DNA of 32,000 nt from Candidatus Babelota bacterium (lineage in GTDB: Bacteria; Babelota; Babeliae; Babelales; Vermiphilaceae), in contig JBDHVY010000001.1 of assembly GCA_039809905.1 (NCBI GenBank), positions 180,001 to 212,000 on the forward strand, given 5' to 3'. Below the pieces are notes generated by a model. The model was not told where the DNA came from. It searched no databases and saw nothing but the letters and a program-made list of their open reading frames with translations. The stretch's first letter is position 1. The number at the start of each line of letters is the position of its first letter. Position numbers and translations under genes: made by a program. Below, piece after piece: positions 1,296 through 27,219 of the stretch.

Positions 1296-1330
1296 GGGTA
1301 CCCGCCTAAAGACACTGAAGGTGGGTTTAA
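1296..1330 (-). repeat. GC-rich 3'-end hairpin repeat, copy A
   Basis: Sense (minus) strand: ttaaACCCACC-ttcagtgtcttta-GGCGGGT-ACCC. It lies 60 nt downstream of the stop of the 1391-2197 gene, in the same orientation and with the same architecture as copies B-E. Confidence 0.55.
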
Positions 1331-1390
1331 GCTAATGAGCGCGTAGGAAATTTAAGCTAAAATAGTATAGAAAGAAGTCTGATTCAATTA

Positions 1391-2197
1391 CTATTTTGAC
1401 TTTGAATATAAAGCTGGTGCAGCTTTATCACATAATTCTTTATAATATTCATAGAGATCTGTGGGCTGAGGATTGCCATTCTCACGGGCATGTACTATGC
1501 ATAACCATATAGAATCATAATCATGAGGTTTTTTATGTACATATGCAAAAATAGTATCAACAGCAATTTTTACTACATCTTTCCAAGGAATGCCACTTCT
1601 GAGACCAAGAGGTAAAAAAGCTATTTTACGAGACGATCTGTTATCTCGCGCAAAAGAATTTAATGCGTTTTGATAACACCAAGCAAGATCTTTTTTGGCT
1701 TCTTCTAATGCTTGAACACCACGAAAATCAACGCTAGTTGAAAAGATTTTTTCTGCTCTCAATTTCGCTCGTACTGTTTCATATACATAATTATTGGTAT
1801 ATTTTTTTGCTTCTCCATCCCAACATTCTTCTTGCGCTAAACGTGGCTCTGCTACAAGAATAACTCTGCTAAGCATCATGGTGTGACGAACACTATTACT
1901 ATTTCTGTTTTTCCCATAAGAATAATCAAATGGTTCATAATTAATCTGTTTTGGTAAGCAAATGATATTACCTTGAGAGTAATATAACCTTCCCGCTAAT
2001 TTATCATGCAAAGGAAATCCCTGTTGCCACAATTGTTGATTTCTGCCCGCAACTATTACAGGAACTTCATAATCCAAACGATCCAAAGATCTTACCTCAA
2101 TTAATTTTATTTTTGTAATAGGCATATTATCTTTATCCATACCATGAATAAAAGAACTCATCCAACACACAATAAGAATAGCCAATCTTACTTTCAT
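1391..2197 (-). CDS. Secreted hypothetical protein, possibly a divergent macro-domain-like fold
   Basis: 268-aa ORF with a signal-like N-terminus, MKVRLAILIVCWMSSFIHG. DLAWCYQNALNSFARDNRSSRKIAFLPLGLRSGIPWKDVVKIAVDTIFAYV..IWLCIV is collinear with the macro pattern (L..aY.naL...ksIAFPaistGi.g.P...a.ia..v..f...v.lv). VPVIVAGRNQQL resembles D.IVNAAN..L, but the GGG phosphate loop is absent. The product call is tentative. Confidence 0.7.
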   Translation of the reverse strand: MKVRLAILIVCWMSSFIHGMDKDNMPITKIKLIEVRSLDRLDYEVPVIVAGRNQQLWQQGFPLHDKLAGRLYYSQGNIICLPKQINYEPFDYSYGKNRNSNSVRHTMMLSRVILVAEPRLAQEECWDGEAKKYTNNYVYETVRAKLRAEKIFSTSVDFRGVQALEEAKKDLAWCYQNALNSFARDNRSSRKIAFLPLGLRSGIPWKDVVKIAVDTIFAYVHKKPHDYDSIWLCIVHARENGNPQPTDLYEYYKELCDKAAPALYSKSK

Positions 2198-2286
2198 TAT
2201 TTTCCCGAATAATTTTCGAACTTAACATAAAAACATGCTATTATAATAAAGAAATTTATATAAAAAAATATTTTTTTAGGACTTTT

Positions 2287-2877
2287 ATGTTAGGCGTTCT
2301 TTACATTGCTATAGGTATTGTTTCCATTTTAACAGCAATACTGGCTTATTTTATTGGCGCTATTCCAACTGGATACCTTATTGCAAAATGTAAAGGGATC
2401 ACCGATATTCGCAACCATGGTTCGGGTAATATTGGTGCCACTAATGTTTCTCGAATATTGGGCAAACATTATTTTTTTCTCATTTTTTTTCTTGATGCAG
2501 GTAAAGCTTATCTCTTTATTCATCTATTAAAAAATTGCTTCAACCCTATCTGTCTCTACATTTTTGCAAGCATACTTCTTTTTGGTAATGGATACTCAAT
2601 TTTTTTACAAGGAAGTGGAGGCAAAGGCGTTGCAACACTTTGCGGTTTATTATTAGCGCTTAATGCAAAAATTGCTCTTATTATGTTGGCACTATGGTCT
2701 TTATTATTACTTATCTTACAAACCGTGGGCATTGCATCAGTTATCGCCGCAACAACTTTACCTTTTTATGTTTACACAACAGATGATATGCCATTTTTTT
2801 TATTCTCTCTTTTTGCTACATTGTGGATTATATATACACACCGATCAAATATCACCGCTTATTGGAATAGAAGGTGA
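2287..2877 (+). CDS. plsY: Glycerol-3-phosphate acyltransferase PlsY
   Basis: GAIPTGYLIAKCKGITDIRNHGSGNIGATNVSRILG...FLDAGKA matches the PlsY signature (GSIP.g.l......DiR..GSGN.GaTNv.R..G....D..KG). It is a multi-pass hydrophobic protein of 196 aa with an AGGA 8 nt before the ATG. Confidence 0.9.
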   Translation: MLGVLYIAIGIVSILTAILAYFIGAIPTGYLIAKCKGITDIRNHGSGNIGATNVSRILGKHYFFLIFFLDAGKAYLFIHLLKNCFNPICLYIFASILLFGNGYSIFLQGSGGKGVATLCGLLLALNAKIALIMLALWSLLLLILQTVGIASVIAATTLPFYVYTTDDMPFFLFSLFATLWIIYTHRSNITAYWNRR

Positions 2878-2975
2878 AAAAAGCACCTACTGAATGGTTT
2901 AGCGGCATAATATTAATCATCATAATAGTTATATTTTATATAAAAAATGATTCATCTATACAAAACAGGAATTGT

Positions 2976-25885: not shown

Positions 25886-26384
25886 AACTTTTCAATAATG
25901 CAATATAATGTTTTGGAGGGAAATTTTTACTATCAACACCATGATTTGCCATTTCATCGGCTTGAGTGTTTTTATCACGAAGAACATGTTCAATAGTTGC
26001 AGCAAGTTTATGCATTCTTTCTTTACATATACCATGTAAAGATTGTAAATGTGGTTGCTTCACTTTATAAATACCATGAAGTTGCCGTACTAAAAGTTGC
26101 GAATCAGAAATAATATGAACAGCATCTTCTTGTTTCACATAATCCTGTAACATAAAAAGTCCTAATAATAGAGCAAGATATTCTGCCTCATTATTAGTTT
26201 TTATTCCTAGAAAGTAACCATCCTTGATAACAAGAACACTATTTTTTTCAATATAAATACCAGCTCCTGAAGGACCTGGGTTTTTACGAGATGCTCCATC
26301 CACAAACAATGTCCACTGCGTTATTTCTTTTTTTGATTTTGATGTTAAAGAAACATCATTAAAGATATCAAGCTGTTTTACCAA
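25869..26384 (-). CDS. rnhA: RNase HI-family ribonuclease H
   Basis: LFVDGASRKNPGPSGAGIYI, TNNEAEYLALLLGL, IISDSQLLVRQL and NTQADEMAN supply the DEDD catalytic pattern. The start is apparently TTG, 9 nt after the upstream stop. Confidence 0.85.
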   Translation of the reverse strand: MVKQLDIFNDVSLTSKSKKEITQWTLFVDGASRKNPGPSGAGIYIEKNSVLVIKDGYFLGIKTNNEAEYLALLLGLFMLQDYVKQEDAVHIISDSQLLVRQLHGIYKVKQPHLQSLHGICKERMHKLAATIEHVLRDKNTQADEMANHGVDSKNFPPKHYIALLKSYGIVL

Positions 26385-26393
26385 AATTGTTCC

Positions 26394-27116
26394 CTACTCA
26401 GTGTGTTTTTCCATAATTTCTGGTGAATATAAAAGACGGTAACATGTCTGGCATTGTATAATAGCGCCATGTCGCGCTCGTGACATATTTTGACTTGTAA
26501 TCATCTGAGAACAGGCACTGCAACTTTGATGAGAAATTTCTACAACAGGATCTACCACACGAGCACGCATCATGCTATATTTTTCTAACCATTCAGCTGG
26601 TACATTCTTTTCCATATCAGCGCGTTGTGATAGCAATTCTTGGTAGGTAGCATTGAATGTATTCAACTTATCTGTCATACCTTCCACCTGTTCATGAAAC
26701 ATCTGAGCTTGCTGAGTATTATCACTCATTGCTTTTTTTAAGCTTTGTTGTGCATTTTCAAGTTGATTCCATGCGTGCAAAACATTCTGTTCTTGTTGAA
26801 CTTGCAAACGTTGAATAGTTTCAATCTCAGATTTTATTGCATGATAATCTTTATAATCAGCAAGAAGCTCAAGATGCTTTTTTTTATCTTTTTCTTGTTG
26901 ATCTAACACATTCATTTCAAGCTCTTGTTCATCAACTTTCTTTTTTAACTGATGAACACGTTCTTGCATGTCTTTAAGTTCTTGAGCATAACGTTCTTCT
27001 TGTTTTTTTGTAGCAAGAATTTCGTTATTGATAGCTATTTTTTCATTTTCAAGAGATTGGATTTTTTGATCAAAATTGACGAGATTAATAAATCGTAAAA
27101 AAGGATGTTCACTCAC
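26394..27116 (-). CDS. COG1579-type coiled-coil protein with C-terminal C4 zinc ribbon
   Basis: A long coiled coil is followed by CSACSQMI....IIQCQTCYRLLY (C..C...C..CgR.Ly). The start is GTG. Pairing of this gene with RNase H is a common arrangement in bacteria. Confidence 0.8.
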   Translation of the reverse strand: MSEHPFLRFINLVNFDQKIQSLENEKIAINNEILATKKQEERYAQELKDMQERVHQLKKKVDEQELEMNVLDQQEKDKKKHLELLADYKDYHAIKSEIETIQRLQVQQEQNVLHAWNQLENAQQSLKKAMSDNTQQAQMFHEQVEGMTDKLNTFNATYQELLSQRADMEKNVPAEWLEKYSMMRARVVDPVVEISHQSCSACSQMITSQNMSRARHGAIIQCQTCYRLLYSPEIMEKHTE

Positions 27117-27185
27117 TATATTCCCCCATTTTTTTAGATATCTTTTTTAAGAATATCCAGCTTTTCAAATTTTATATTCTTCACT

Positions 27186-27219
27186 GGGGTCCCCGGCTAA
27201 AATGAAATGTAGCTGGGGT
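27186..27219 (-). repeat. GC-rich 3'-end hairpin repeat, copy E (8 nt after the tRNA 3' CCA)
   Basis: Sense (minus) strand: ACCCCAGCT-acatttcatttt-AGCCGGGG-ACCCC. Confidence 0.6.

Follow-up and report, generated by a model that had tools for sequence, protein, structure and literature searches.

GC-rich hairpins at gene ends in a Babelota genome: probable units of a REP-like palindromic repeat family

Hairpin units and genes in the window

The analysed window, a 32-kb stretch of a Candidatus Babelota contig, contains a pair of convergent genes near its left end, a DUF58 gene, serS, an operon with an ABC permease gene, a SpoIID-like gene and a tRNA-Met gene. GC-rich hairpins are associated with these genes (Table 1). 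All five copies of the preliminary description (A to E) were recovered with the coordinates and sequences quoted there, including the spacing of A from the 1391-2197 gene (60 nt downstream) and of E from the CCA end of tRNA-Met (8 nt downstream) and the placement of D within the final 12 codons of the ABC permease ORF, as well as the AACCCCAACTTCG that C and D have in common. The sequence and position of copy A were correct but incomplete, as an inverted second unit at 1271-1299 had been overlooked; folded as DNA, the resulting doublet gives two neighbouring hairpins, and the loop and stem of the added unit, A2, are close to those of a unit at 15008-15036 in the related locus L185 (relatives are denoted by L numbers). 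A covariance model of the family detects 6-7 units in the window. The enrichment described earlier was reproduced, the pattern CCCC-N10-35-GGGGNCC having four matches in the window vs 0.01 expected from shuffles, and almost all G or C runs of at least four nucleotides outside coding sequence do fall within these copies. The candidate unit inside the SpoIID-like coding sequence (17.6 bits, E 0.005-0.03) lacks the typical flanks and may be a chance match.

A second palindromic family, unrelated to the first, co-occurs with the units and is even nested in the loop of one of them. Such nesting and co-occurrence are typical of repeat-accumulating sites. A literature search on the sequence of this second repeat found nothing relevant.

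Table 1. Repeat units and associated features in the window, followed by doublets and the triplet in relatives (bits, covariance-model score)
Feature	Position	Strand	Context or sequence	Basis
Second palindromic family, copy	1218..1262	.	GCGCGCT-CATTCTGAACTTGTTGAAGAATCAA-AGCGCGC; adjoins doublet A	
Doublet A, full	about 1266-1331		between convergent genes 114-1154(+) and 1391-2197(-)	
Unit A2	1271..1299	+	left half of doublet A; + strand ACCCAAT-ttccacttcgtttct-ATTGGGT, then ACCC	match 1264-1307(-), 28 bits, E 4e-5; hairpin scans
Unit A1 (copy A)	1296..1330	-	right half of doublet A	34.4 bits
Putative decayed partner of B	8340..8376	-	CCCCAT-TAAAGAAC...-AGGGTAAAG	weak match 8340-8387(-), 8.3 bits; tail motif common to other single copies
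Unit B	8377..8412	-	directly behind DUF58 TAA stop (8410-8412)	33.7 bits
Hairpin of unit B	8381-8409	-	followed by tail CCCC	
Tail region of C	9340..9374	-	GATAAAAAGGAGAGTGGT; possible partner remnant	
Unit C	9375..9409	-	one base after serS TAA stop	35.1 bits
Unit D	20263..20298	+	insertion into 3' end of ABC permease ORF	42.1 bits
Putative decayed partner of D	20299..20325	+	AATAAAATCAAGATTTAGAAA	weak match 20287-20319(+), 8.1 bits; extra length vs empty sites exceeds one hairpin
Candidate unit	25813..25856	+	inside SpoIID-like coding sequence; CCCATGC-12 nt-GCATGGG	see text
Putative decayed partner of E	27150..27185	-	CCCCAG-tgaagaatataaaatttgaaaag-CTGGAT	weak match 27158-27197(-), 5.8 bits
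Unit E	27186..27219	-	8 nt after tRNA-Met 3' end	45.5 bits
Possible degenerate unit (uncertain)	27309..27342	-	just upstream of tRNA-Met	11.3 bits, E 0.28
Doublet or triplet, L179	8035-8091			
Doublet or triplet, L002	1739-1796			
Doublets or triplet, L173	1243-1301, 3544-3596			
Doublet or triplet, L172	4741-4793			
Doublet or triplet, L185	14981-15070			
Doublet or triplet, L189	20225-20303			

When complete, the element measures ~65-70 nt and consists of two inverted hairpin units of ~30 nt joined tail to tail, with the consensus TTTAA-CCCCAxx-loop-xxYGGGG-A-CCCCRxx-loop-xxTGGGG-TTAAA. The central GGGG(A/T)CCCC is common to both units and the outer ends read TTTAA-CCCCA; the halves are inverted copies of each other, with the ends TTTAACCCCA...TGGGGTTAAA as terminal inverted repeats, and one loop is pyrimidine-rich (TTCGnTTCTCTTC) while that of the partner is its purine-rich complement. 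Single units measure ~27-31 nt, with stems of 6-9 bp and loops of 9-19 nt, the loops often being more conserved than the inner stems. Conservation is highest in the C and G runs, the central palindrome and the TTAA flank, which adjoins the C-run in 9 of 29 units vs ~1.3% in the background (hand count) and occurs as one-base variants in most of the others. Seven doublets or triplets, one of them a triplet, form clusters of alternating orientation. Intact doublets have no orientation and are predicted to fold either as two hairpins or as a single long one.

This architecture revises several features of the preliminary description. The 'second ACCCC', taken there for a free motif, is the 5' arm of the inverted partner hairpin, and the ATTAA and ATAAA repeats around B and C, put down to target-site duplication or chance, match the usual partner remnant and not a target-site duplication. 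This remnant (ACCCC, 2-4 nt and an AAGAA-type loop start) is present in eight of ten single copies. The weak model matches at the partner positions overlap the shared GGGGNCCCC junction and are not independent evidence; the case for decayed partners comes instead from the AAGAA motif in the tail and from remnants of the 3' arm. We infer on these grounds that the partners of B, D and E have decayed and, more weakly, that of C, whose tail region (9340..9374) has no covariance-model match. The ribosome-binding site of an ORF remnant of 19 codons is now located in this tail region.

Two resemblances were considered and rejected. Mimicry of a tRNA acceptor stem (7-bp stem plus ACCA/ACCC) fails in that ACCCC is the partner arm and the sense stem has A.C mismatches. 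The similarity to integron attC sites (CCCCAAC...GTTGGGG vs RYYYAAC...GTTRRRY) does not extend to the core motifs, which misfit, and the neighbouring genes are housekeeping genes.

Distribution and insertion sites among relatives

With the covariance model, 32 units (E<=0.05) were found in 152 kb from nine related loci, i.e. about one per 4.7 kb, and none in four other related loci. As sampled, the repeats are confined to one amoeba-associated clade of Candidatus Babeliales (Dependentiae/TM6), and all units except D and one doubtful match are extragenic. Rfam yielded no match for the repeats, only tRNA, either at the gathering threshold in the window or at E<=0.1 in five related loci, and no mention of such repeats was found in the literature on Dependentiae/Babeliales genomes. 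The pattern ACCCC-N14-26-GGGGACCCC gave at least 120 matches in viral contigs, which are chance ones, and its specificity is too low for scanning collections; a subfamily pattern had 16 metagenome matches, five of which are true family members, and none in viral contigs.

Covariation supports the stem: none of 500 shuffles reaches the observed score, and there are 15 double changes at stem position 6 and 12 at position 7. These pairs were counted in the covariance-model alignment, as MAFFT alone misaligned several units. The covariation bears on the possibility that a dimeric protein (nucleoid-associated, gyrase-like or regulatory, for example) binds the units as duplex DNA, through GGGGNCCCC and TTAACCCC boxes. 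Conservation concentrated in the C/G runs, palindrome and TTAA flank would suit such sites, and E. coli BIMEs, which bind gyrase and IHF, offer a precedent. However, the inner stem positions vary freely yet covary, which points to intrastrand pairing and not to readout of duplex sequence; in addition, one of the boxes is lost from the single copies, and the transition mismatches are strand-asymmetric (see below), which would be meaningless in duplex DNA. This function is most improbable.

Comparison of orthologous loci in close relatives shows filled and empty sites. Copy D is absent from the same site in L001, L124 and L189; the window is ~38 nt longer there than L001 and L124 in the permease alignment, and the coding sequence of the old permease tail is still visible downstream. 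The insertion replaced the last 12 permease codons, creating the new C-terminus NPNFASLRRGPQ and a stop at 20301-20303. Copy C is absent in L184, L185-188 and L190. At the 3' end of the DUF58 gene, units of differing type and orientation occur in the window, in L001/L002 and in L189, and none in L185 and L190. Identical loops are found at non-orthologous sites (D and L172 4741-4767; L002a and L179b), and E, L001b and L002b, also from non-orthologous sites in different genomes, resemble one another. No duplicated flank was seen when filled and empty sites were compared for C and D. The TTAA-like flanks on both sides are equally explained by the symmetry of the element itself.

The L189 and L124 copies at the serS stop, together with an L001 copy 60 nt downstream of serS, are probable orthologues of copy C; the window and L189 copies are alike in 27 of 35 bases, with one compensatory change. 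The serS-stop copy appears to have been kept in genomes with serS proteins of only 83-90% identity, which suggests function rather than junk. Copies of the same genome have diverged considerably and their loops are often more conserved than the inner stems, an uncommon pattern for an element active in the recent past and one in keeping with selection acting on them.

It had been proposed that the TAA of the element provides the stop codon. Copies B and C do abut TAA stops, but these are native, as the stop positions of serS and DUF58 are unchanged with or without the element; only D supplies a new one. The statement that all copies lie 3' of a transcription unit and in the same orientation did not hold in general. 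Copies A and B are situated between convergent genes, one unit of L124 (2089-2118) is in a divergent promoter/5'UTR region, and units at L001 15915-15941, L002 5366-5396 and L172 4558-4587 are antisense to the upstream gene.

Strand asymmetry and possible origin

The observation that sense-strand A.C mismatches are G.T wobbles on the complement proved general (18 G.T-type vs 2 A.C-type, p=4e-4, with unit orientation assigned independently of the mismatch), although 8 of the 18 fall at stem position 5 and may go back to a founder sequence. The strand preference left open previously is thus a clear asymmetry, of which the position 5 component may reflect ancestry, and it agrees with the behaviour of elements that are processed as a single folded strand. 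Predicted hairpins reach -6.6 to -11.2 kcal/mol on the mRNA strand vs -9.9 to -15.9 kcal/mol on the opposite strand. Of the ten single copies in co-directional contexts, nine have kept the hairpin that folds worse in the mRNA (six of seven with orthologues merged, at which point the bias is not significant). The tail lies 20-70 nt from the next start in single copies and at least 59 nt in intact doublets. A link of orientation to replication was rejected, as the GC skew is uniform and is followed by six of ten co-directional single copies vs nine of ten for transcription.

These data can be set against the possibility that the hairpins are non-mobile RNA elements of the upstream transcript, i.e. 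non-canonical terminators, 3'-end stabilisers or processing sites under selection. Such a role would agree with the covarying stems, the retention of the serS-stop copy in several genomes, the positions between convergent genes (A, B, L001b, L173_1), after tRNAs (E and L189, where a doublet similar to E lies ~10 nt after a tRNA) and after serS, and the start of 7 of ~21 clusters 0-1 nt from a stop codon. An intrinsic terminator in particular was rejected, in agreement with the earlier doubt: a terminator scan picks up none of the five copies, the 3' flank is ACCCC or TTAAA depending on the strand, there is no U-tract and the loops of 9-19 nt are too long. Moreover, the HU gene has a canonical hairpin+T terminator conserved in all genomes compared, beside which a unit has been inserted in L124, and the repeat family is therefore an add-on and not the terminator. 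Against an RNA element of any kind stand the location of D inside an operon with a changed protein end, the presence of L124a and L172a in 5' regions, and the poorer folding in mRNA of the surviving hairpins; dyad-symmetric doublets and loops shared at unrelated sites would also be left unexplained. It is an unlikely reading. Among the options listed earlier, an mRNA 3'-end stabiliser is accordingly disfavoured by the worse-folding surviving hairpin, whereas a REP/BIME-like repeat or miniature mobile element is supported by the insertion polymorphisms, the inverted doublets and triplet, and the loop likeness at non-orthologous sites.

The GC-rich hairpins are thus probably units of a short interspersed palindromic repeat family, REP/BIME- or REPIN-like and presumably mobile. 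The insertion sites of a doublet or unit would be intergenic, and very often a stop codon, a tRNA or an existing terminator would lie immediately before them. The element would probably be selfish DNA that moves by way of a strand-specific, single-stranded hairpin, the form that a putative transposase would recognise. After insertion, pairing within the stem of each unit would persist, in line with the observed compensatory changes, and the half over the 5'UTR or ribosome-binding site of the next gene would decay, leaving a hairpin followed by ACCCC and AAGAA...; copies B, C, D and E would be such residues. Any cellular role, e.g. as a 3'-end hairpin, an insulator or an effector of translation termination at the stop, would be secondary and is hypothetical. 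A search for transposases, RAYT/IS200-like or other, found none in the window and none in the Pfam annotation of ~190 kb of related loci, a sample in which a single-copy gene is easily missed.

The orientation of the retained halves raises another possibility, that they act on the opposite strand as domesticated stops or insulators against antisense or convergent transcription into gene 3' ends. The more stable fold is always that of the strand antisense to the upstream gene, co-directional single copies keep their orientation in the proportions given above, and in doublets each direction of transcription meets first a weak and then a strong hairpin. However, the strong hairpin is followed by UUAAA with no U-tract, the orientation bias loses significance on merging orthologous copies, part of the wobble asymmetry may come from the founder, and decay of the half over the downstream ribosome-binding site is a simpler account of the bias. 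This explanation is very unlikely. In a more specific form, which is distinctly unlikely, retained half-elements were domesticated as orientation-specific insulators and, as a linked possibility, TTTAA together with the hairpin is the recognition site of a putative strand-specific (HUH-type) transposase of Dependentiae. If domesticated after insertion of a selfish doublet behind a gene, the hairpin that folds well only antisense to that gene would be kept and the one that is strong in the mRNA lost. In the AT-rich, reduced genome, such insulators would stop antisense or convergent transcription or, alternatively, exert their effect on single-stranded DNA.

Dependentiae are known almost only from metagenomes, and to our knowledge their non-coding DNA has hardly been described. 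Two palindromic families, one of them a dense family of doublets, would imply that selfish hairpin repeats are still present and subject to turnover in small host-dependent genomes. As copy D illustrates, such insertions can give a protein a new C-terminus and move translationally coupled genes apart. In practice, the repeats account for odd gene-end calls and GC-rich islands in AT-rich assemblies. They could serve as a clade marker, with the covariance model being usable for annotation, and their strand asymmetry and adjacency to stop codons provide handles on the targeting and tolerance of REP-like elements.

Comparison with known systems

On the best reading, this palindromic repeat family is new for the phylum Dependentiae but belongs to a familiar kind of element; it is not a new gene-end signal, resembling instead the REP/BIME (PU) sequences of E. 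coli and other Enterobacteria. The units of either family are imperfect GC-rich palindromes, ~30-35 nt long, extragenic and interspersed, often located just after genes or between convergent genes and clustered in alternating orientation, and in both a short conserved motif flanks the hairpin and a stem mismatch makes the strands unequal. REPs near stop codons affect expression of the upstream gene. The two do not resemble each other in sequence. The hairpin is flanked by TTTAA/TTAA here and by GTAG in REP (GTAG is absent from the units), the units adjoin directly through the shared GGGG(A/T)CCCC and lack a linker motif, the loops, of 9-19 nt, are long and have a consensus of their own, no RAYT gene was found in the sampled loci, and the hosts are AT-rich, reduced, host-dependent Dependentiae.

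The RAYT-associated REPINs of Pseudomonas and other bacteria likewise have an inverted doublet as the apparent basic element, single copies that look like decayed doublets, and a patchy distribution among close relatives; however, REPIN units are separated by a spacer and fold as one long hairpin, whereas here the units fold individually. With the ends of IS200/IS605 elements and PATEs the family shares strand-specific hairpins abutted on one side by a fixed penta- or tetranucleotide (TTTAA here) and the lack of an evident target duplication; IS605 has been reported to insert 3' of TTTAA. In contrast, the LE and RE hairpins of IS200/IS605 are direct and not inverted, the present element is far shorter, and no TnpA or TnpB gene was seen in the sampled loci. 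Rickettsia RPE and MITEs (Correia, RUP, ERIC) are also palindromic selfish repeats, often of intracellular bacteria, and can insert at ORF ends and alter the protein as D does, but they span 100-400 bp compared with 65-70 nt here, and MITEs have target-site duplications besides terminal inverted repeats, whereas no duplication is evident here. Finally, Rho-independent terminators share the GC-rich stem in an AT-rich genome and the frequent location at gene ends; the present units differ from them in U-tract and loop length, coexist with conserved canonical terminators, and also occur inside an operon and in 5' regions.

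A clade-restricted hairpin family and its doublet form

The five GC-rich hairpins of the window (copies A-E) belong to a genuine family that is restricted to its clade. Their coordinates and sequences agree with the preliminary description, and the gene context proposed for them was borne out by ORF calls, Pfam and ARAGORN. In the window, which has a G+C content of about 33.6% and a uniformly negative GC skew, the pattern CCCC-N10-35-GGGGNCC occurs four times versus 0.01 expected from dinucleotide-preserving shuffles, and the noncoding ones among the 41 runs of at least four G or C fall almost entirely within these copies, as had been noticed. 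An Rfam search of the window returned a tRNA as its sole match and none to the hairpin family.

Homologues of its serS assign the window to Candidatus Babeliales in the phylum Dependentiae (TM6); the best of them are 91-83% identical and were all found in metagenome assemblies, and no record of the exact protein was found. The loci compared around serS (designated by L numbers, with suffixes for individual units or clusters) are L184 (serS identity 91%), L001 (90%), L002 (89%), L185-188 (85%), L124, which is identical to L125 (84%), L126 (84%), L189 and L190 (83% each) and L127 (71%); L172, L173, L179 and L182 were added from a subfamily pattern scan of metagenomes. A covariance model of the unit, i.e. 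one hairpin of about 30 nt, was built on 23 units collected by hand and detected 32 units (E<=0.05) in 221.5 kb of clade DNA. All of them fall in nine loci of 152 kb together, a density of about one per 4.7 kb, and the same search found no unit in L184, L190, L126 and L127. In the covariance-model alignment 85% of stem cells are paired, with 15 compensatory double changes at stem position 6 and 12 at position 7; the observed covariation score was reached by none of 500 column shuffles, and sliding the partner columns abolished the covariation. The hairpin is therefore under constraint. A hairpin within the SpoIID-like coding sequence of the window scored 17.6 bits with the unit model but is devoid of typical flanks, and may represent either a chance match or an old unit that the gene has absorbed.

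In the related loci, units commonly occur as doublets, two inverted units placed tail to tail with the structure TTTAA-CCCCAxx-loop-xxYGGGG-(A/T)-CCCCRxx-loop'-xxTGGGG-TTAAA, and as single strands these are predicted to fold into either two hairpins or one long hairpin. As copy A is also a doublet with an inverted second unit, the "second ACCCC" reported after each G-run arm is the 5' arm of an inverted partner; the hairpin first described is real, but it is only half of the element. In eight of ten single copies the ACCCC is followed after 2-4 nt by a purine-rich sequence of the AAGAA type, and the inner stem and loop of an intact partner start in the same way. Damaged 3' arms are still kept in copy E (CTGGAT) and in single copies of L189 (TTTGGTG), L001 (AGGGAG) and L124 (ATGATCC). 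Single copies thus appear to be doublets with a decayed distal half.

Coordinates and context of features in the window and in related loci
Feature	Locus	Position	Context
Copy A	window		60 nt past gene 1391-2197
Copy A, second unit	window	1271-1299	opposite orientation
Copy B	window		directly past DUF58 TAA stop
Copy C	window		one base past serS TAA stop
Copy D	window		inside final 12 codons of ABC permease
Copy E	window		8 nt past tRNA-Met
Doublet	L179	8035-8091	
Doublet	L002	1739-1796	
Doublets	L173	1243-1301, 3544-3596	
Doublet	L172	4741-4793	
Doublet	L189	20225-20303	
Three-hairpin cluster	L185	14981-15070	
Unit sharing the loop of copy D	L172	4741-4767	
Unit in 5' region	L124	2089-2118	divergent intergenic region
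Hairpin resembling unit	window	25813-25856	SpoIID-like coding sequence
Hairpin + T-run terminators	window	4744-4769, 15455-15489, 18373-18400	
Post-HU spacer	window	15451-15523	
Long near-perfect hairpin	window	21020-21056	convergent genes 20333-21085(+) and 21074-22342(-)
ABC substrate-binding gene	window	18446-19414	upstream of permease
19-codon ORF	window	9296-9355 (-)	directly after copy C
Second repeat family	window	1218-1262, 1335-1348	the latter a fragment
Second repeat family	L002	~1610-1650	
Second repeat family	L179	~7960-8000	
Second repeat family	L124	~250-400, 13110-13150	
Second repeat family	L189	20262-20290	
Second repeat family	L126	13950-14260	
Second repeat family	L185	~530-640, 750-790, 12150-12360	
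Toxin/immunity genes	L001	12130-13308	variable region
Toxin/immunity genes	L002	2992-3279, 8082-9977	variable region
Toxin/immunity genes	L185	12450-14315	variable region

Filled and empty sites among relatives

Comparisons with relatives point to the units as inserted DNA. For copy D, alignment with L001 and L124, in which the permease and ATPase genes overlap at ATGA, revealed about 38 extra nucleotides between these two genes in the window. The C-terminus of the window permease is encoded by the element (NPNFASLRRGPQ*), and the former coding sequence for the C-terminus (…AAAGGC…TCATGA) remains discernible 3' of the copy. The substrate-binding gene upstream of the permease is also present in L184 and L189 and missing from L001 and L124, so this transporter operon differs in gene content within the clade.

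The site of copy C is empty in the closest relative, L184, as well as in L185-188 and L190, where the serS stop is followed by unrelated short spacers; it is occupied at exactly the same place in L189 and L124, and L001 carries a unit 60 nt further. As the copy at the serS stop has been kept in relatives that are fairly distant, it could also have a secondary role in the cell. At the 3' end of DUF58, the window and L189 have a sense-oriented unit, L001 and L002 have an antisense one, and L185 and L190 have none. Loop sequences recur in units that belong to different genomes and occupy unrelated sites: copy D and a unit of L172 have identical loops and different inner stems, L002a and L179b also have identical loops, and copy E, L001b and L002b represent another loop subtype. 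Comparisons of filled and empty sites gave no evident target-site duplication, and the ATTAA and ATAAA direct repeats noted earlier match the usual partner remnant instead.

In relatives, the serS-DUF58 interval and the sequence downstream of DUF58 vary strongly and carry PT-HINT genes, GIY-YIG genes, and genes for a bacterial RNase A-like toxin and CdiI-like immunity; these surroundings form a variable island in relatives that is absent from the window. The 19-codon ORF of the window (MQIIQAIKKIFPHIVVSNL*), which has a strong ribosome-binding site (AAGGAGAG), starts like a 195-aa gene located after serS in L002 (MQII...) and therefore seems to be what is left of a deleted gene. A second, unrelated palindromic repeat family (consensus (GC)GCTCG/GTTCGT-ATCCTTCRACAAGYTCAGG-ACGAGC/ACGAAC) often adjoins the GC-hairpin units, is once nested in a unit loop (L189), and is present in L126, a locus devoid of such units; neither Rfam nor a literature search on its sequence gave a match.

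Strand, orientation and placement

For each of the five window copies, better folding is predicted for the strand antisense to the upstream gene than for the sense strand (-9.9 to -15.9 versus -6.6 to -11.2 kcal/mol). When hairpins were detected symmetrically and oriented solely by the side of the GGGGNCCCC junction, the transition-type mismatches on the strand with the junction 5' of the hairpin were 18 G.T and two A.C (p=4e-4), one of the two exceptions being a false positive in coding sequence. Eight of the 18 lie at stem position 5 (CCCCR/TGGGG) and may have been inherited from a founder sequence with the same mismatch; the remaining ten are distributed among six further positions. This asymmetry can be read either as selection on folding of that strand, as RNA or single-stranded DNA, or as better sequence conservation of the outer arm than of the inner arm.

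Among single copies between co-directional genes, the hairpin that is weak in mRNA was kept in 9/10 cases (6/7 with orthologues counted once), and orientation follows transcription in 9/10 versus the GC-skew strand in 6/10. In single copies, 20-70 nt would separate the lost half from the next start codon, and this half would often cover the ribosome-binding site; intact doublets have a spacing of at least 59 nt. A positional origin of the orientation bias is the simplest explanation, and the suggested lock to gene 3' ends in one orientation then becomes a by-product of tolerated insertion sites and of the half that survived. The position of the loss and the retention of the weak-in-mRNA hairpin disfavor the proposal that surviving hairpins stabilize mRNA, and an antisense or single-stranded-DNA role for them is conceivable.

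Seven of about 21 clusters start 0-1 nt past a stop codon (B, C, L124d, L189_1, L189_2, L001b and L173_1) and two lie 8-10 nt past a tRNA, and one unit of L124 is located in a 5' region, past a promoter-like TATCATAAT, rather than at a gene end. As the presence of a unit does not change the position of the serS and DUF58 stop codons, the units abut native stops and do not supply them, contrary to the initial proposal; copy D is the exception. TTAA directly adjoins the C-run in 9/29 units, against an expectation of about 1.3% on base composition, and most other units have one-base variants; TTAA/TTTAA may be either a target sequence or a component of the element.

Terminators and known repeat classes

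The family units are not the terminators of this genome. Their loops measure 9-19 nt and a U-tract is found on neither strand, features that speak against intrinsic terminators, and the window has three canonical terminators consisting of a hairpin and a T-run. The post-HU terminator was kept with compensatory stem changes in every genome examined (spacers of the window, L001, L124, L184, L185, L189 and L190), and L124 carries an inserted family unit right next to it. This terminator is preceded by another hairpin (AAAAACCTTCTCGCAAGAA..GTTTTT), which is small and likewise conserved. The terminator-like hairpin at 18373-18400, flanked on either side by a T-run (AAATCCCCGGTAGCACAACCGGGGATTTTTT), lies in the divergent intergenic region from which ydjM and the ABC substrate-binding gene start, a place where a terminator is unexpected; in L124 the equivalent position is taken by a family unit. 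Another hairpin of the window (GCCCAATCAGAAC...GATCTGATTGGGC), with a stem of 12-15 bp, is located inside the overlapping 3' ends of two convergent genes.

With regard to known repeat classes, the units match no Rfam family, and assignment to MITEs fails on the target-site duplication. Such repeats are not mentioned in the Dependentiae genome literature that was searched. Strict membership in REP/BIME is not established: the GTAG motif of REP is absent from the units, and no RAYT or IS200-like transposase gene was found in the approximately 220 kb of the window and related loci. On balance, the units seem to represent a REP/BIME-like, probably mobile family of palindromic doublets that is new for Dependentiae. 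Their closest analogues in anatomy and behavior are the REP/BIME elements of E. coli and the REPINs of other bacteria, with which they share short imperfect palindromes, clusters of alternating orientation, a conserved flanking motif, strand asymmetry, extragenic placement near gene ends and a patchy distribution among relatives.
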